NCBI GenBank assembly: GCA_019057385.1
Contig: JAHQJS010000003.1
Span: forward strand, 32,001 to 96,000
Direction: 5' to 3'
Origin: Candidatus Borrarchaeum weybense
GTDB taxonomy: Archaea > Asgardarchaeota > Sifarchaeia > Borrarchaeales > Borrarchaeaceae
DNA: 64,000 bases
Position numbers and translations under genes: made by a program. Of the stretch, positions 21,582 through 62,326 are shown in pieces (within the stretch, counting starts at the first letter, position 1; every line of letters begins with the position of its first letter). The notes beneath the pieces are model-generated. The model made no database searches. It had not been told where the DNA came from and worked only from the letters and a program-made list of their open reading frames with translations.

Positions 21582-21815
21582 GTCAACTACCCCACCCTAA
21601 AGGGTAGAGGCTTGTGAAAATCAAGCCTCTTAGTTGATTAGAGGGCTTCCGTTTATTAGGGGAAGCAGCAGTTGTTTAGGTTATGACACCCTGGGGTGTT
21701 CCACTAGCCCCTTGCTCTGTCGTCCGCTGATTATAAGTCCTGAGGGGTAGGGACGGTGTCACGGGCATGAAAGCCTTTACAACAGCCTCGAAGTGGACCA
21801 ACCTACTTTAAAGCA
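21582..21815 (+). ncRNA. IscB omegaRNA (HEARO-like) scaffold; guide expected just upstream (~21560-21581)
   Basis: GC-rich structured leader starting GTCAACTACCCCACCCTAAAGGG directly upstream of iscB; TATA-like TTTATAAAA at 21530; 3' end approximate. Confidence 0.75.
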
Positions 21816-21836
21816 ATTTAAAGGAGACGATAGGTC

Positions 21837-23039
21837 TTGAGAGTACCTATCTACGTGTTAAACATGAGAGGGCAACCGCTTATGCCAACCACTCAAAAAA
21901 AAGGAAAAAAATTATTAAGAGAGGGTAAGGCAAAGGTTGTAAAACGATGTCCTTTTACTATTCAATTAACCTATGCAACTGGAGAGGCAAGACAGCCTAT
22001 TAAACTAGGAGTGGACATAGGATATACGAACATTGGCTTTAGTGCAACAACAAAAAGGTTAGAGGTTATAAGCGGAACTTTAACACTTCGCAAAGACATT
22101 TCCAAAAAGATAGATGAACGACGAAGGTATCGTAGAACTCGTAGAGGCAGATTGTGGTATAGAAAACCGCGTTTTTTTAATAGGAAAAAGGACGAAGGAT
22201 GGATAGCCCATAGTACTCATCACAGGTTAGCTTCTCATCTTAGCCTAGTTAAAAAACTTAAGTCTTTACTGCCGATAACCTTCAAAAGAATCGAGGTCAG
22301 CAATTTAGATACACAAAAAATGCAGAATCCTGAAATTACAGGAATGGAATATCAACAGGGCGAACTTCAGGGCTACGAAGTTAAAGAATACCTTTTAGAG
22401 AAATGGGGGCGTACATGTGCCTATTGTGGCAGATCAGGCGTTCCCTTAGAAGTAGAGCATATTATCCCTTCTAGTAGAGGTGGAACAGATCGCGTGTCGA
22501 ATTTGACGATCTCATGTAGAGCCTGCAATGTAAAGAAGGGAGATCAGACTGCCGAGGAGTTTGGATACCCTGTCATCCAGCAACAGGCAAAGCAGCCTCT
22601 TAAAGCAGCTGCATGTCTGAACAACATTCGTTGGAGGATAGTGGAGCAGTTAGGAGCAGAACATACTTACGGATACATTACCAAATACCAGCGTAACAAG
22701 TTAGATCTGGAAAAGTCTCATGTTAATGACGCGTTCGTAATCTCAAGCGGCACCAATCAAGAACGATGTCGTCCTTATCAAGTAATTCAAGTTAAGAGGA
22801 GAAACCGTTCCTTACAATTGAACCGTAAAGGCTTCAAACCGTCAATTAGGAGACAACGATACCATTTACAACCCCACGATCTAGTAAAATTTGATGGTAG
22901 CACTTATAAAGTAAAGGGAGTCCATTGTTATGGAACACGGGTTATATTAAAAAATGTGAAGGGACAAGACAAGAGTGTAGTGATCACCAAAGTGGAATTA
23001 GTTAAATACGGAAAAGGATTATTATTCAACTTATGTTAG
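21837..23039 (+). CDS. iscB: IscB RNA-guided endonuclease
   Basis: PLMP, RuvC-I LGVDIG, Arg-rich bridge helix, HNH CAYCG...EHIIPSSRGG...NLTISCRACN, RuvC-III SHVNDA. Confidence 0.93.
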   Translation: MRVPIYVLNMRGQPLMPTTQKKGKKLLREGKAKVVKRCPFTIQLTYATGEARQPIKLGVDIGYTNIGFSATTKRLEVISGTLTLRKDISKKIDERRRYRRTRRGRLWYRKPRFFNRKKDEGWIAHSTHHRLASHLSLVKKLKSLLPITFKRIEVSNLDTQKMQNPEITGMEYQQGELQGYEVKEYLLEKWGRTCAYCGRSGVPLEVEHIIPSSRGGTDRVSNLTISCRACNVKKGDQTAEEFGYPVIQQQAKQPLKAAACLNNIRWRIVEQLGAEHTYGYITKYQRNKLDLEKSHVNDAFVISSGTNQERCRPYQVIQVKRRNRSLQLNRKGFKPSIRRQRYHLQPHDLVKFDGSTYKVKGVHCYGTRVILKNVKGQDKSVVITKVELVKYGKGLLFNLC

Positions 23040-32936: not shown

Positions 32937-33758
32937 ATGAGAAAAACAAAAAAACTGATGATGATTCATGCCTATACTCCCATTGCAAAACCGATCAACA
33001 CCTCTGTTCAAAAAAATTCAACCATGCTGTTGTTAGGTCAAATTCCCTACGAAAACGGGTCAAAAATATTCACTACTAAGCTTTATTATATCAAAGGATT
33101 ACGTGGAATGCTAAGACATGCCTGTATGAGCCTTGCTCAGGATTGTAGTATCGAGGTGTGTCATACCAGCGAAAAAACTGAACTCAAAGACGGTACAAAG
33201 GTGACTCCCTCAGGGTTTCATCCACTGGGTGAATGTGAACCTCCATGCATCCTCAAAAGAATTTTTGGTACATTTCGCGAGGAGTCCTCAATATCTGTCT
33301 TGTCAGATCCTATAGCTTCTATTAAGCACAAAGAATTTACCACTGAAGTTCCTGTGCAAAAGGTACATATCGCTAGCGAATATAGAATAGCGAAATCGTT
33401 CACGGGTATACCTATTCAGGACTTCAAGGAATCGTATTTCTCAGGGTATTTTAGTTTCTGTATTGATGTAACTGAATTAACTGACTATGAAATCAAGTTT
33501 CTCATGGAATCTCTACTCTACATTGAAACACTTGGTGCTGGTAAGCGTTCGGGTTATGGACGTATCAAAATTATTAGTTTCGAGTTTCAGAAGGTTGAAA
33601 TTACCAGAAAGATCGACCGCGAAAATGGAAGTTATAAAGTTGTTGAGAATGAGTCGATAACGCCCTTAGAACTCGATGATATCGAGAGTTGGAGGGATTC
33701 AATACCTTCATGGACACAAGGCACGCAAGATGGTATGCTACCTGTTCTTAACGAGTAG
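32937..33758 (+). CDS. cas7: Divergent Cas7-like RAMP (locus A)
   Basis: IKGLRGMLRH, Cys cluster CH...CEPPC, IFG, G-rich loop LGAGKRSGYGRI; close paralog of 61174..61983. Confidence 0.8.
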   Translation: MRKTKKLMMIHAYTPIAKPINTSVQKNSTMLLLGQIPYENGSKIFTTKLYYIKGLRGMLRHACMSLAQDCSIEVCHTSEKTELKDGTKVTPSGFHPLGECEPPCILKRIFGTFREESSISVLSDPIASIKHKEFTTEVPVQKVHIASEYRIAKSFTGIPIQDFKESYFSGYFSFCIDVTELTDYEIKFLMESLLYIETLGAGKRSGYGRIKIISFEFQKVEITRKIDRENGSYKVVENESITPLELDDIESWRDSIPSWTQGTQDGMLPVLNE

Positions 33759-33932
33759 CACGTTCTTGTGCATGAGACTGCTCATCTATAAAGGTCTGAC
33801 GCCTTTGATGAGGAGGGATGACTCGCAGGGGACGATAAATGTCGTAAACATGTTTATGAGTTTACTAAGTCTATCGACTAACCTTGCAAAGCCTCTCTTA
33901 AGCGATGGCAAGTTAAACGCTTGTCATCGCTT
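33731..33932 (+). ncRNA. Putative guide RNA 1: scaffold 33731-33843, guide ~33844-33889, hairpin 33900-33932
   Basis: Scaffold shared with 59913-60028 and 61025-61139; 33865-33889 matches pyrD 34041-34065 (24/25). Confidence 0.7.
33900..33932 (+). terminator. Hairpin after guide 1
   Basis: AAGCGATGGCAAG/CTTGTCATCGCTT stem (one G-U), followed by T-rich tract. Confidence 0.55.
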
Positions 33933-34037: not shown

Positions 34038-34982
34038 ATGCTAACTCTATCGACTAACCTTGCAACATTACAACTTAAGAATCCTGTTATGTTAGCTGCT
34101 GGAGTTCTCGGTATTTCGGGACCAGTACTTAAACGGGTAGCGAATGCCGGTGCGGGTGCGGTTGTCACAAAATCTATCGGTCCTGAGCCCAGAGAAGGTT
34201 ACAATAATCCAACAGTCGTTCCTTTAAATGAATTTAGTTGTTTGAATGCTGTTGGGCTTTCAAACCCTGGGTATTTAGAGTTTTCCAAAGAAATAATTTT
34301 GGCAAAACAAGAAAACGTTCCAATAATTGTTAGTATATTTGGCGCAGATATTGATGAATTTTGTACAATTGCGAAGAAAATGGAAAAGAGTGGTGCTGAT
34401 GCACTTGAACTTAACCTTTCATGTCCTCATGGAGGAAAATATGGTGCATCTATCGGACAGGATCCACAATTATCAGGTGAAATTGTATACGCCGTAAAAA
34501 ATACCGTGCAGATCCCTGTTTTTATTAAACTCACACCAAACGTGACTGATCTGATTCCTATTGCAAAAAGTGCTGAAAATAATGGTGCCGATGCTATTAC
34601 TGCAATCAACACAGTACGCGCTATGTGCATAGACATTGAAACTGGGCAGCCCTTATTATCAAACGCGTTTGGAGGGCTTTCTGGGCCTGCAATAAAACCA
34701 ATCGCAATCAAACATATTTATGATCTCTATAAAGAAGTAGGGATCCCTCTTATCGGTGTGGGTGGTATTGTTTCTTGGGAAGATGCAATAGAATTCTTTC
34801 TTGCTGGAGCTACTGCAATTCAAGTAGGGACTGGGCTTCTGCGGACATCATTCCTAGACATGTTTAATGAATTAACCGAAGGAATTCTAAGTTATCTCAG
34901 AAGAAAAGGCTATACTCGTTTAGAAGAAATCATTGGACTTACTCATAGACTTAAATCTTATAGGGGATCTTTACACGAGTAA
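34038..34982 (+). CDS. pyrD: Dihydroorotate dehydrogenase B catalytic subunit
   Basis: KNPVMLAAG, LNAVGLSNPG, ELNLSCPH, KLTPN, GGLSGPAIKP. Confidence 0.95.
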   Translation: MLTLSTNLATLQLKNPVMLAAGVLGISGPVLKRVANAGAGAVVTKSIGPEPREGYNNPTVVPLNEFSCLNAVGLSNPGYLEFSKEIILAKQENVPIIVSIFGADIDEFCTIAKKMEKSGADALELNLSCPHGGKYGASIGQDPQLSGEIVYAVKNTVQIPVFIKLTPNVTDLIPIAKSAENNGADAITAINTVRAMCIDIETGQPLLSNAFGGLSGPAIKPIAIKHIYDLYKEVGIPLIGVGGIVSWEDAIEFFLAGATAIQVGTGLLRTSFLDMFNELTEGILSYLRRKGYTRLEEIIGLTHRLKSYRGSLHE

Positions 34983-59304: not shown

Positions 59305-59595
59305 TTAATCACCCTCTTGTAACTTTTGTTTGATCACAAAAACTCGTATTTTTTCCTCTGCAATTATAAGTGTATCATTGATGGATTTAATTACAGAATG
59401 AGGAATTAAAATTGTTCCTTTCTCATCGCGCGGAAATTTTTCAATATCTGGATGTTTAGTAGGCTTCACACACACCGCTAATAGGTGGCCATCTCGCGAA
59501 TTAATTATGAAATCAACTACCTTTCCCATAGCAGAACCTTTTTCATCAGTTACAGAAATACCAACTAAGTCCCGGATATCGATGATTTCCGACAT
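59305..59595 (-). CDS. PRC-barrel domain protein
   Basis: DLVGISVTDEKGSAMGKVVDF...ILIPHSVIKSINDTLII. Confidence 0.85.
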   Translation of the reverse strand: MSEIIDIRDLVGISVTDEKGSAMGKVVDFIINSRDGHLLAVCVKPTKHPDIEKFPRDEKGTILIPHSVIKSINDTLIIAEEKIRVFVIKQKLQEGD

Positions 59596-59846
59596 TTTTC
59601 ATCCCATCAGACCTTGCATGAGTCGGTCTATGTTAAATCAATATTTTTTGCTATTAATATCATCTGCTTCGAGTTATAAATTAGTCAAGTCATATTGACA
59701 GAACCTTTTCAAAAAGCAAAAATGAGAGTAGAATTGGAAAATTCAAAATTCGATTCAATAAATCTCGAATGAAAAGTGAAAACTAAAGAACGCTGTGCAA
59801 TTATCTTCGTTTAAATCATACAAAAGTCTATCATAATGCAGGAAAT

Positions 59847-60028
59847 AGGAGGGAATAATCCCTCCTTATCTAATATTTACAGGAATGCCGATTAAGTCGC
59901 GGATATTTTTTTGACATTTTTCGTCCCCTGCGAGTCATTCATTCCCAACAAGTGAGGCGTCGGACCTCTAATTTGGTTCAGTCTCATGCACAAGAACGTG
60001 TCCCCCGTGATATACGAAGAACATTCCG
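59847..60028 (-). ncRNA. Putative guide RNA 3: scaffold 60028-59913, guide ~59912-59875, hairpin 59866-59847
   Basis: Scaffold copy; 59906-59877 matches PRC-barrel gene 59579-59550 (25/30); perfect AGGAGGGA/TCCCTCCT stem. Confidence 0.7.
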
Positions 60029-60061
60029 CCTTGTAACTCATTAAACCTCTTGAAAAGAGTC

Positions 60062-60091: not shown

Positions 60092-60919
60092 TCATTCTTG
60101 CCATGTATACAAACCACTCTTCAAGTCATCAAGATAGAGATTTACCATAAGGAGTAGGTGATTTTTTAAAGATGAAAAGCCAAATTTTAGCGCTTCGCTG
60201 ATCTTATCAAACGCTTGACATTTTCGAATATAAGTATAAAGAGCATAAGGGGAATATTGACGCCTTTCTATCTCTATTTTTAATACATCGAAATCAATTT
60301 TTTCTAATTCTGTCACACGATAACGAGAGGACGCTGACCATCTAAATTTTCGAGAAATCATTGCAGATAGTCGGTCATAATGTTGTAATAAATAAAGCCA
60401 AAGAAAATCTTTTTCATCTATATCATAATTGTGATGATTCTTTGCAAGTTTGAAGACATCTTCGTCAGCTATATCAACATCAGTATAAATTTTACTTGGA
60501 TGTCGATCAGTGCCTACAAAATCATGCAGGAGCATTGCTATAATTAACTTTTCCTGCATATCTGAGAGTTTAGGAAGTTTCTTACGAATCTTAATTCTTC
60601 TTGTAGTATAGAGAGGCTTTTTCTTGAGTTTTTTGAGAGAAGTCCAAAAGATTCGTCCCATCCCCTCACATGTATAACTTCCAACACTATCAATAGCAAG
60701 TGCTTCTTCAAGTTTATGTTCTGAAACGATAAACTCAATATTACCAAACCACGCCCTAAAGGTCATTGGCGCACGTCTTTGTCCTACCGTTAATTTTCCG
60801 AATACCCTGGGACGACCTTTTATGGTCATCGCTCCAACGTCGGTAACTCCAAAATGTCTACGCTTTGAAACAATAGGAGTTTTTGTATAACCAATTAATT
60901 TAAAGTATTTCTGTGGCAT
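60092..60919 (-). CDS. Cas5-like RAMP fused to permuted HD nuclease domain
   Basis: N-terminal YFKLIGYTKTP and G-loop GSYTCEGMGRI; LLHD...NHH...YDRLSA...SLKNH. Confidence 0.7.
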   Translation of the reverse strand: MPQKYFKLIGYTKTPIVSKRRHFGVTDVGAMTIKGRPRVFGKLTVGQRRAPMTFRAWFGNIEFIVSEHKLEEALAIDSVGSYTCEGMGRIFWTSLKKLKKKPLYTTRRIKIRKKLPKLSDMQEKLIIAMLLHDFVGTDRHPSKIYTDVDIADEDVFKLAKNHHNYDIDEKDFLWLYLLQHYDRLSAMISRKFRWSASSRYRVTELEKIDFDVLKIEIERRQYSPYALYTYIRKCQAFDKISEALKFGFSSLKNHLLLMVNLYLDDLKSGLYTWQE

Positions 60920-60944
60920 TTTATTCCCTCTTATAAGATTTTAC

Positions 60945-61139
60945 CTCCTCTTTGAACAAAAGAGAGGAGATATAAACCTTGCCAAAGTAAACACGTTTGC
61001 AACTGTTGTTTGTAAAGTGGGTATGACATTTTTCGTTCCTTGCGAGTCATCCGTCCCCAACAATTGAGGCGTCGGACCTCTAAGCTGGTTCAGTCTCATG
61101 CACAAGAACGTATCACTCACATCAGTAAGTGATAAACCG
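60945..61139 (-). ncRNA. Putative guide RNA 2: scaffold 61139-61025, guide ~61024-60970, hairpin 60969-60945
   Basis: Scaffold copy; 61021-60970 aligns to cas7 promoter 62071-62019 (7 mismatches, 1 gap). Confidence 0.72.
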
Positions 61140-61173
61140 TAATGAGATGAGAAAAAAAGTTGAAATAAATGTG

Positions 61174-61983
61174 TCACACAGCCACCTTCTCATCCTGTTT
61201 ACTCATAGTATTCAAAGAAGTTCTCCAATCCTCGATTTTACTTAGAGAAAGCGGAATTTCAGTGGTTTCTTCTATAATTTTATAGTTTCCTTCGCTATCC
61301 TCTTCGACTCTTCGAAAAGTCTCAACCTTCTGAAGAGCAATATTAAGGATTTTGACGCAACCATATCCACTTGACCGTCCTGCCCCAAGAATTTCTACGT
61401 AGAGCATTGCTTCTATAAGAAACTTGATTTCAACATCAGTTAGATTAGTGACATCAATTTGAAAGGAAAAAAATCCACTGAAATAACTCTCACGAAAGTC
61501 TTGGATGGGAGTACCATCATAGGCAAGCGCTATTCTGTTTTCACTAGAGATGTGGACATTTTGAACTGGCACTATTGTTATAAAATCTTTGTGTTTAATC
61601 GAGGCAATAGGGTCTGCTGCGACAACAATAGAGGACTTTTCACGGAAGGTGCCAAAGATTGTTCTGAGAATACAGGGAGGATCGCATGTACCAAGCGCAT
61701 GAAATCCTTGCGGAAGAACACTTTTACCATCTTTAAGTTCAGTTTTTTCAGAACTATGACATACTTCGATGTTGCAGTCTTGAGCAAGTTCCATACAGGC
61801 ATGTCTTAACATCCCTCGGATACCTTTAATGTAATAAAATTTAGTATTGAACGTTTTTTCTCCATTCACATAAGGAAATTTCCCTAACAAGAGCATGCTA
61901 GAATTTTTCTGAATCGAGGCATTGATAGGCTTTGCTATGGGTGTAAAGGCGTGAACAACTATCTGGTTTTTGATTTTTCTCAT
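61174..61983 (-). CDS. cas7: Divergent Cas7-like RAMP (locus B)
   Basis: IKGIRGMLRH, CH...CDPPC, IFG, LGAGRSSGYGCV. Confidence 0.8.
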   Translation of the reverse strand: MRKIKNQIVVHAFTPIAKPINASIQKNSSMLLLGKFPYVNGEKTFNTKFYYIKGIRGMLRHACMELAQDCNIEVCHSSEKTELKDGKSVLPQGFHALGTCDPPCILRTIFGTFREKSSIVVAADPIASIKHKDFITIVPVQNVHISSENRIALAYDGTPIQDFRESYFSGFFSFQIDVTNLTDVEIKFLIEAMLYVEILGAGRSSGYGCVKILNIALQKVETFRRVEEDSEGNYKIIEETTEIPLSLSKIEDWRTSLNTMSKQDEKVAV

Positions 61984-62017
61984 GTTTCCAACCTCAAATA
62001 TATTTAGTACAAGTACC

Positions 62018-62090
62018 TATATAAACCTTGCTCAAAATAAACACTTTTTCTACTCTTGTTAGTAAAATGGGGTTTAAAATGACTTCCTTT
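62018..62090 (-). promoter_or_regulatory. cas7 promoter (TATA TTTATATA 62025-62018); homologous to 32821-32890; matched by guide 2
   Basis: AAGGAAGTCA...CCCATTTTA...GGTTTATA...GAGGTTGGAAA-n-ATG upstream of both cas7 copies. Confidence 0.65.
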
Positions 62091-62326
62091 TTAGAAATAA
62101 AGTATTTTAAACAGGTTTTATGTGAAAAACCATTGTATGTTTAGAACCTGATTTATAAATCACAATGTAACATTCAATTTACATCATCATTTTTTTAAAA
62201 GAATAGTTGTTTGATTTAACAAAATTAAGTTTCTTCGGGAATTCAAAAAGAGTACATTGATGGTATCAACTAAACTAAAAATCGTTCGAAAAAAATAATT
62301 GTTCCATTGATGGTTGCTAATAAAAA

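Follow-up and report, generated by a model that had tools for sequence, protein, structure and literature searches.

An ARAMP cassette from an Asgard archaeon with a candidate scaffold-and-guide RNA that matches the promoter of its own cas7-like gene in a six-nucleotide register

We analysed 64,000 nucleotides (nt) of the genome of Candidatus Borrarchaeum weybense (the window; contig JAHQJS010000003.1, positions 32,001 to 96,000). This study concerns the co-oriented gene cassette on the minus strand at the end of the window, which is followed by a PRC-barrel gene. In order, the cassette contains a large gene for a fusion of a helicase and a Cas1-like domain (helicase-Cas1); a 343-nt spacer; a gene for a 269-amino-acid (aa) Cas7-like protein; a putative scaffold RNA (S1); a guide-like segment (G2); a gene for a 275-aa protein that joins a RAMP domain to HD-type motifs (RAMP-HD); a second scaffold copy (S2); and another variable segment (G3) (Table 1). 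By gene content (helicase-Cas1, a Csm3-like Cas7, RAMP-HD, and no array), the cassette is a member of ARAMP, which was reportedly first described by Makarova et al. in 2020 (CRISPR J). For the definition of ARAMP, we relied on two later papers by its describers (PMC8730458 and PMC12669027). Our main result is that, in the sequences we compared, G2 and the promoter of the cas7-like gene (P1) are identical at five of every six positions, in a register that is tied to the end of the scaffold.

Table 1. Features of the cassette and its surroundings, in the order of transcription (window coordinates).
Feature	Position	Strand	Basis or remark
Helicase-Cas1 fusion, C-terminal 557 of 1327 aa	62327..64000	-	Remainder past the window edge
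Element just upstream of P1: TATA-like run TTTAAAATACTTTATTT, then GGAAGTCAT, which resembles the scaffold 3' end	62079..62111	-	Conserved in clades A and B
P1, protospacer-like target upstream of cas7	62019..62071	-	Alignment to G2
cas7-like RAMP gene, 269 aa	61174..61983	-	Pfam, PADLOC, Foldseek
S1, predicted scaffold RNA: variable 5' hairpin, conserved 91-nt core, single-stranded 3' tail ending AAAAAUGUCA	61024..61151	-	Repeat, consensus fold
S1 91-nt core	61114-61024	-	Repeat
G2, putative guide segment	60970..61023	-	Alignment to P1; guide nt n is window position 61024-n
G2 register sites (predicted to be unpaired), guide nt 7, 13, 19, 25, 31, 37	61017, 61011, 61005, 60999, 60993, 60987	-	
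Hairpin directly 3' of the guide, CUCCUCU...AGAGGAG	60945..60969	-	Fold
RAMP-HD gene, 275 aa: small N-terminal RAMP domain, then HD-type motifs	60092..60919	-	Translation, invariant columns
S2, second scaffold copy	59912..60039	-	Repeat; the conserved 6.4-kb cassette ends on the right exactly where S2 does
G3, variable segment after S2, then hairpin and T-rich run	59860..59911	-	Resembles the 5' end of the PRC-barrel gene
PRC-barrel gene, next after G3	59595-59305	-	

A periodic match between G2 and the cas7 promoter

A preliminary description of the window had aligned minus-strand positions 61021-60970 (within G2) with 62071-62019 (P1). The alignment holds: there are 45 identities in 52 aligned bases and one 1-nt gap (after alignment position 39), and the mismatches lie at alignment positions 5, 11, 17, 21, 23, 27, and 35, exactly as claimed. 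Its local alignment score is 35, and shuffled queries reached 14 at most. Across the 4.18-Mb genome, P1 is the only significant match to the G2 segment besides paralogous copies. Five of the seven mismatches do fall in one class modulo 6; for this pair alone, the permutation p-value for period 6 is 0.004, or 4e-4 if the register is fixed beforehand. If the register sites are ignored, P1 and G2 match at 31 of 35 positions. The target was also said to cover a B recognition element (BRE) and TATA box, and P1 does end in a BRE/TATA-like box (TTTATAT, 62025-62019), 35 nt before the ATG of cas7. G2 itself has no predicted structure.

Because guide and promoter have the same sense, the cas7 mRNA is excluded as a partner of G2, which leaves the template DNA strand or an antisense RNA. 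We saw no sign of an antisense RNA over P1, and the equal sense is consistent with the earlier proposal that DNA rather than mRNA is recognized. The 8-nt 5' handle that had been suggested also fits the register: it would comprise the seven scaffold nt at the 3' end and one more nt (AAUGUCA+N for clade A, and AAAGUGA+N or AAAGUCA+N for the other clades), and the RNA would have to be trimmed to this length. In all loci, the 5' flank of P1 consists of A and T only, and the guide's own DNA has GTCA or GTGA there, so the contrast between flank and handle could serve to discriminate self from non-self. Beyond the A/T-only flank, we could not define a protospacer-adjacent motif (PAM) at P1.

The hairpin that follows G2 is likely to be the 3' end of the RNA or an element that stabilizes it. 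As no T-run comes after this hairpin, transcription could continue into RAMP-HD. The guides of clades B and 421 (described below) are also followed by a hairpin at the equivalent place, but with a different sequence. The element just upstream of P1 is possibly a second promoter or the remnant of a scaffold. We also considered a 6-nt shift of the handle-like motif upstream of P1 relative to the scaffold end; this is true in clade A, but the shift is 7 nt in clade B, so we dropped the idea.

The cassette is present in multiple copies, so the tabulation of mismatches over homologous guide/promoter pairs that had been suggested as a check was feasible. The genome has about 10 loci (on contig C3, six on C4, two on C5, one on C6, and a fragment on C7). 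Using tblastn and blastn, we found three close copies (clade A, on C3, C4, and C5; the window holds the C3 copy), several at about 65% identity of Cas7, and fragments. We took further loci from metagenome-assembled genomes (MAGs) of Ca. Borrarchaeum and from metagenomes; the closest outside loci are from MAGs of Ca. Borrarchaeum yapensis, Promethearchaeota, and Hodarchaeota. Wherever there is a scaffold between cas7 and RAMP-HD together with a P1-type promoter, the ~50 nt 3' of the scaffold align to the cassette's own promoter.

If we number the guide from the first base past the scaffold end (...GUCA or ...GUGA), then the ten pairs, from clades A, B-core, and 421, share a single 6-nt register, at guide nt 7, 13, 19, 25, 31, 37, 43, and 49, or spacer nt 6, 12 ... 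48 (Table 2). Six was the best of the periods from 2 to 10 in 8 of the 10 pairs. Pooling four representative pairs (one from clade A, one from B-core, and two from clade 421), 16 of 22 mismatches are at register sites, which are 29 of the 191 sites (p = 4e-11). With the register fixed, the p-values for single pairs are 0.054 and ~0.06-0.08 in the clade of B_421 and L022/L023 (the latter value is estimated, and is 0.45 with a free residue class), and 1e-3 or lower, down to 7.5e-7, for the remaining pairs. Clade B has mismatches at 7 of 8 register sites versus 2-3 of ~43 other sites. A longer alignment of B_525 (nt 2-72) adds six mismatches past nt 53, for a total of 8/15 on the register.

Table 2. 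Mismatches between guide and promoter, by guide nt, in ten homologous pairs (the counts cover guide nt 2-53 for B_525 and 3-53 for L012).
Pair	Mismatched guide nt	On register
A_C3 (window)	7, 13, 19, 23, 25, 29, 37	5/7
A_C4	7, 13, 19, 25, 29, 37	5/6
A_C5	7, 25, 31, 37, 51	4/5
B_421 (clade 421)	7, 9, 43	2/3
B_752	7, 13, 16, 25, 31, 37, 39, 43, 49, 50	7/10
B_906	7, 9, 13, 16, 25, 31, 37, 43, 49, 50	7/10
B_525	7, 13, 16, 25, 31, 37, 43, 49, 50	7/9
L012 (Borrarchaeum)	7, 13, 16, 25, 31, 37, 43, 49, 50	7/9
L020 (metagenome, clade B)	7, 13, 25, 31, 37, 43	6/6
L022/L023 (clade 421)	7, 26, 28, 31, 32, 33, 43	3/7

The register that is seen in the single pair in the window predicts the mismatch pattern of the other clades. 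Its position relative to the scaffold 3' end is identical in all clades that carry the pair, despite their different sequences and lengths, and the homology of G2 and P1 begins 2 nt past the scaffold end in every clade.

Guide and promoter also change together. Between clades, sites off the register show 10-17 double changes that keep guide and promoter equal versus 0-3 one-sided changes (10-11 versus 0-3 for clade A against clade B, and 17 versus 2-3 for clade A against B_421). At register sites, there are 0-2 matched changes, and the others are one-sided. These comparisons give good support to selection on the pairing of guide and promoter. The simplest account would be selection for one copy, in the form of an RNA bound by a Cas7 filament, to pair with the other. 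We take the guide to be the copy beside the scaffold because the register is anchored to the scaffold end and because the 3' segments of the other scaffold copies are variable. As other causes of the pattern, we rejected gene conversion, which would homogenize the register sites too, yet these change one-sidedly, and a DNA-binding protein, from which no 6-nt period over 50 bp is expected.

Ten loci carry S1-G2 together with a P1-type promoter, and six carry neither. One clade has a replaced cas7 promoter; of its loci, L019 still has an intact S1-G2, B_1002 has a degenerate one, and B_C6_562 has lost it. G2 is 64/64 identical between A_C3 and A_C4, even though these two cassettes are 81% identical overall. 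With the register masked, G2 matches its own P1 at 31-34 of 35 positions and the P1 of sister copies in its clade at 30-34 of 35. Since the sister-copy promoters are matched almost equally well, the circuit probably operates between copies as well. The TATA-like box of the guide copy has been spoiled in clades B and 421 by a change at register site 43 (TTAGATAT, TTCTATAC), while P1 retains TTTATATA. These clades therefore do not preserve the downstream copy as a promoter, and their RAMP-HD may be expressed from the S1 transcript.

The predicted scaffold RNA and the proteins of the cassette

The core of S2 (60002-59912) is 90% identical to that of S1, and the genome has ~22 copies of the scaffold. 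A consensus fold from 28 copies (from this genome, Borrarchaeum, and metagenomes) has 25 pairs, 11 of them with compensatory changes, which are concentrated in the 10-bp 5' hairpin, whose sequence varies among copies. The closing stem contains U-G pairs, which would be A-C on the opposite strand, and the sense strand folds better than the antisense strand in 20 of 22 copies (p = 1e-4). The final ~10 nt of the scaffold, A(A/U/G)AAA(U/A/G)GU(C/G)A, are unpaired. By our reading of the sequence, TATA-like boxes precede the conserved 5' ends of the units by ~26 nt. Each unit continues with ~50 variable nt and then a hairpin, which in terminal units is followed by a T-rich run. A structured RNA from the sense strand of the scaffold is supported by these features. 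Rfam has no family that matches the scaffold; its sole match in the window is a HEARO RNA (see below).

A 78-aa open reading frame (ORF) at 60941-61177 on the minus strand spans S1 and G2, but it is almost certainly no gene. Elsewhere, there are tandem scaffold-guide-hairpin units with a period of ~265-270 or ~500 nt (L002, at 119.4-119.9 kb of C5; L015, 6126-6520; and L005, 930-1555), which amount to a miniature "array" with very long repeats.

In clade A, the homology extends from ~100 nt before the ATG of helicase-Cas1 to the exact 3' end of S2 (6.4 kb, at 77-87% identity). In this, the cassette resembles a mobile unit that ends in an RNA scaffold, like IscB/TnpB elements. We inspected the ends of the unit by eye only and noticed no inverted repeat or target-site duplication. 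The 64-kb window has no array-like tandem repeat, and the only repeats of the locus are the 91-nt scaffold copies.

The 269-aa protein matches RAMPs from Pfam (2.9e-6) and Csm3 from PADLOC (2.3e-8). We modelled it with AlphaFold2 (mean predicted local distance difference test, or pLDDT, of 72.8), and its best Foldseek matches in the PDB are all Cas7 subunits of class 1 systems. The top match is 8rc2_E (4.7e-7), which is Csf2 in a DNA-bound IV-A3 complex. The matches include Csf2, gRAMP, type VII Cas7, and Csm3, each with a probability of 1.00, at template modelling (TM) scores of only 0.35-0.45.

In RAMP-HD, a G-rich loop like that of RAMPs lies within the N-terminal ~100 aa, and the motif residues H132 D133 and H162 H163 are invariant. 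Pfam's HD family matches weakly, in 3 of 8 paralogs (0.013 at best). The AlphaFold2 model has a pLDDT of 53, which is too low for a structure search; a profile search against PDB found nothing relevant, and the Atlas gave only weak leads to HD domains (below 0.8). When we modelled Cas7 together with residues 1-110 of RAMP-HD, the contact score was 0.67, and the best of three controls scored 0.00. This score was attained by 58 of 80 solved complexes and by 2 of 110 mismatched pairs. Between model runs, at least 82% of the contacts agreed, and the pLDDT of the partner was 72 or more. The models support a Cas7 fold and a contact between Cas7 and the RAMP domain, but because Cas5-Cas7 complexes have already been solved, the latter may reflect likeness and is not proof.

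The N-terminus of helicase-Cas1 has DEAD, ResIII, and Helicase_C domains, which make it a superfamily 2 (SF2) helicase. Its C-terminal domain, when searched in isolation, matches Cas_Cas1 (PF01867) in 6 of 6 paralogs, with 6.7e-6 at best; the window copy scores 5.8e-4 and 19.5 bits, which is under the Pfam cut-off of 22.3. For the Cas1 domain, a profile search of the PDB and the Atlas gave no match.

Proposed repression of cas7 and other possible explanations for the pairing

We propose, with a probability of roughly 0.6, that the S1-G2 RNA in a Cas7/RAMP-HD complex pairs with the template strand of the cas7 promoter and represses cas7 as CreR does. G2 would be the guide part of a single-transcript scaffold-and-guide RNA of the ARAMP cassette; the ends that we give for this RNA are predicted. 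It would be held by a filament of the Csm3-like Cas7, with RAMP-HD capping the scaffold (handle) end, and every sixth guide base would be flipped out and unpaired, as in all class 1 effectors. The complex would pair with the template strand of P1 (62071-62019), presumably in an R-loop-type structure, over the BRE/TATA-like box of cas7. Transcription of cas7 would be lowered, presumably with no cleavage of the promoter, which would be a negative feedback like that of CreR and other CRISPR RNA (crRNA)-like RNAs. The circuit would probably also set the dose over the ~10 genomic copies.

Several observations weigh against this proposal. The complementarity is almost full-length and the HD motifs are apparently intact, which is hard to reconcile with a complex that binds its own promoter without cutting it. 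CreR-type repression relies on partial matches (bioRxiv 10.1101/2023.03.03.530964; 10.1101/2023.03.10.532045). ARAMP is presumed to derive from type III (PMC8730458), and type III targets RNA, whereas our proposal needs binding to DNA. Within the register data, only three of the seven mismatches of L022/L023 keep to the register, with a cluster at nt 26-33; the clade A pairs lose the register ahead of the TATA box, through the 1-nt indel at guide nt 41/42; and in clade B, the register sites are mismatched yet conserved among orthologues, so no drift is visible on that time scale. (We speculate that long identical direct repeats at a distance of 1 kb might be selected against, which would account for this conservation.) The metagenome locus L019 keeps an intact S1-G2 without a matching promoter in cis. 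All of the positive pairs come from one genus-level, Borrarchaeum-like group: in more distant ARAMP loci from other Asgard families (L044-L070), we found no guide/promoter match beyond those of shuffled sequences and, with nhmmer, no detectable S RNA.

The pairing could be real but not serve to repress cas7. It might mark the cassette's DNA for helicase-Cas1 (for mobility, copying, or recombination), provide self-recognition against insertion into a copy already in place, or direct a nick by the HD domain that primes synthesis. We consider this unlikely, although it fits the multi-copy cassette with its sharp conserved boundaries, of which the right one is exactly the scaffold 3' end, and the cassette does encode a fusion of a helicase with a Cas1-family integrase and an apparently intact HD domain. 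The nearly full-length match, in contrast to the partial ones of CreR-type repressors, also speaks for it, and the guides of sister copies fit each other's P1 at 30-34 of 35 positions. However, the target lies exactly on the BRE/TATA, at promoter distance from cas7. The pair is retained in B_525, yet no helicase-Cas1 gene was found upstream there; its loss goes with that of the P1-type promoter rather than that of Cas1 itself; and at P1 we found no end-like repeats or target-site duplications.

Repression of cas7 by G2 also has to be weighed against a common third partner that constrains both P1 and G2. Both might be targets of another guide, or both might be guides against an external target such as a virus. 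The identical periodic pattern would be expected, and the register sites of clade B are conserved on each side separately. The TATA-like run and the motif like a scaffold 3' end that precede P1 might mean that P1 is transcribed as a guide without a scaffold. But we found no third copy in the genome, even with the register masked: there are only the copies of G2 and P1. G2 and P1 differ between clades inside one genome (at 10-17 covarying sites), so a third partner would need matching variants for each clade. The register is also fixed to the scaffold end beside G2, and we view this explanation as improbable.

The preliminary description had named a simply duplicated promoter as the alternative to its reading. 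In the form that we considered, ~50 bp of promoter or operator would drive both cas7 and RAMP-HD through one transcription factor, and G2 would not be a functional RNA. This would explain the TATA-like box at the end of each copy, which lies at the distance of a promoter from a start codon that has a Shine-Dalgarno-like GAGG. It would also explain why neither box is damaged in clade A, where the two copies share 12 identical bases before and in the box beyond the 1-nt indel. It is contradicted by the periodicity, the decay of the guide copy's TATA box, and the joint presence or loss of guide and promoter. Neither recognition of double-stranded DNA nor neutral divergence is expected to give a 6-nt periodicity over 40-50 bp (the pooled p-value is 4e-11), the guide copy has a damaged box in clades B and 421, and the start of the homology keeps to the scaffold end in every clade, so we give this alternative very little chance.

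That P1 and G2 encode paralogous short peptides and differ at wobble positions is hardly credible: clade A does have a frame without stops in P1 and in G2, with three synonymous differences, and the 78-aa ORF overlaps S1/G2, but that ORF passes through a structured RNA, the clade B frame has stops in both copies (TAA/TAG at guide nt 23-25), and only alternate wobble sites differ (those at nt 4, 10, 16 ... are almost never mismatched, and 7 of 8 are on one sublattice, p = 0.003 given period 3), so we rejected a coding explanation.

Related systems, other guides, and nearby elements

ARAMP has been described, from genome analysis only, as an array-less derivative of type III whose mechanism is enigmatic (PMC8730458, PMC12669027) and is expected to be "distinct from those of CRISPR" (PMC8730458). 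The classification of November 2025 lists HRAMP and ARAMP solely as array-less derivatives (PMC12669027). The cassettes that we studied share with ARAMP the Asgard host, the Csm3-like Cas7, a distinct homologue of Cas1, and the lack of an array, and RAMP-HD may correspond to the second RAMP of ARAMP, which is linked to a nuclease domain. The descriptions of ARAMP (PMC8730458, PMC12669027) name no RNA, whereas the cassettes here appear to carry structured scaffold-and-guide RNAs, and one of the guides bears the signature of Cas7-type pairing with the cassette's own promoter.

The idea of autoregulation is itself already known from CreR and crRNA-like RNAs. Autoregulatory RNAs of this kind have been found in types I-B, I-E, I-F1, and V-A, and there are documented crRNA-like RNAs that have sixth-position mismatches and act as repressors of the cas promoters of their own system (bioRxiv 10.1101/2023.03.10.532045; 10.1101/2023.03.03.530964). 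As with CreR, a crRNA-like RNA inside the cas locus matches the promoter of an effector gene, and autorepression is proposed. But CreR RNAs come from degenerate repeat-spacer-repeat mini-arrays and have partial, seed-weighted matches beside a PAM, while S1-G2 would have a ~130-nt 5' scaffold, an unrelated 3' hairpin, no flanking repeats, and a match of 40-50 nt. Also unlike the hosts of CreR, ARAMP has no array at all, so regulation would not be secondary to immunity by way of normal crRNAs. Judging from these comparisons, S1-G2 would be CreR-like in action but is not a CreR member by architecture.

In type IV-A, a filament of a type III-related Cas7 (Csf2) binds double-stranded DNA and silences it with a helicase rather than shredding it, which is a precedent for DNA binding by a filament of this kind. 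Type IV-A has CRISPR arrays, processing by Cas6, and a separate DinG, while in ARAMP the helicase is fused to Cas1 and the HD motifs are on the RAMP cap. Like the OMEGA systems (IscB/TnpB), the cassette has a structured scaffold 5' of the guide, and the guide of S2 is variable DNA past the end of a mobile unit. Unlike OMEGA, its protein partners are class 1 RAMPs (a multi-subunit filament) with no RuvC nuclease, and G2 is inside the cassette. The homing spacers of Tn7-CRISPR elements are another case of long-lived guide/target pairs in the same genome that tolerate differences at sixth positions (Petassi et al., bioRxiv 10.1101/2020.07.02.184150). Those guides direct insertion at conserved host genes, while G2 targets the cassette's own promoter; the terminal guides described below, which match the 5' ends of neighbouring genes, are closer to the Tn7-CRISPR case.

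Since 2019-2020, HRAMP and ARAMP have stood as CRISPR-derived systems with no array, no known RNA, and an "enigmatic" mechanism. The periodic match of guide and promoter is evolutionary evidence that ARAMP still uses RNA-guided base pairing of the Cas7 type. Compared with the literature that we searched, what appears to be new is a candidate RNA and a proposed mechanism for ARAMP, a stand-alone gene for a 5' scaffold with a guide, and the comparative case for 6-nt pairing. The result is of high interest because the mechanism of ARAMP becomes directly testable: an experiment now has the RNA (with its predicted scaffold, handle end, and guide length), the register, a natural target and its strand, and a read-out in the cas7 promoter. 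It would also mean that a class 1 effector can use a scaffold and guide in a single transcript, which is relevant to compact programmable DNA binders.

A broader view, which we hold tentatively and at somewhat less than even odds, is that ARAMP is a working class 1 system for RNA-guided DNA binding, with stand-alone single-guide genes in place of a CRISPR array, feedback guides and guides aimed at neighbours, and units that are written or moved by helicase-Cas1. Each single-guide gene would have its own promoter, a ~130-nt scaffold, a ~50-nt guide that the filament of Csm3-like Cas7 reads in 6-nt steps, and a terminator hairpin. One guide would provide feedback on the cassette's own promoter, and the rest would be aimed at the 5' ends of adjacent genes. 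If so, ARAMP would be the class 1 counterpart of OMEGA and single-guide RNA (sgRNA) systems, and a mobile element with RNA-defined targets.

The terminal guides are less regular than G2. For G3, the preliminary description counted two of five mismatches on the register; we found six mismatches (at nt 14, 21, 23, 26, 30, and 37), and only one of these is on the register. In the region 59550-59940, G3 is a copy of the 5' end of the PRC-barrel gene, with differences that are codon-like and not periodic. The start region of this gene (59640-59586) contains a remnant of the scaffold 3' end, GACTC..GCAAGG..GAAAAATGTC, whose ATG is the start codon. What had been said of another guide in the window (guide 1; 33865-33889 versus 34041-34065) is borne out: 24 of 25 positions match and the lone mismatch is on the register. 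Guide 1 belongs to a solo Cas7-like gene (32937-33758, plus strand) with one scaffold copy (~33720-33844), and its nt 21-45 match codons 2-9 of the dihydroorotate dehydrogenase gene that follows. The region upstream of the solo gene keeps part of a P1-like motif, and there is no G2.

Other terminal guides (L001, at 338.8-339.4 kb of C4; L012, 4478-5183; and L002, at 118.0-119.8 kb of C5) match DNA on the same strand 50-650 nt downstream. One terminal guide matches an FtsY-like gene with differences at third codon positions, one from Borrarchaeum matches with a 3-nt in-frame indel, and one extra guide matches the flank 50 nt past the end of the cassette. Across five terminal-guide pairs, 10 of 24 mismatches are on the register, versus 4 expected. 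With the register masked, none of the terminal guides has a full-length match elsewhere in the genome. These matches hint at homing or at control of the neighbouring gene.

A distant ARAMP pair (L009; C5:80690-82259), at 42% and 34% identity, lacks the S scaffold, and a GC-rich stretch after its RAMP-HD gene might be a different scaffold. Past the window, upstream of helicase-Cas1, there is a GC-rich, structured-looking stretch with tRNA-like acceptor ends (L010, 8400-8880, minus strand). ARAGORN found no tRNA in it, and it is possibly an intron-containing tRNA or some other RNA. The window also holds archaeal genes for RpoG, Lsm, and PAC2. Finally, at 21582-23039 on the plus strand, the HEARO RNA (RF02033, 116.8 bits) is followed by a gene for a 400-aa IscB-type protein (RRXRR, 1.4e-56; HNH, 3.3e-13), so the window contains an OMEGA element as well.

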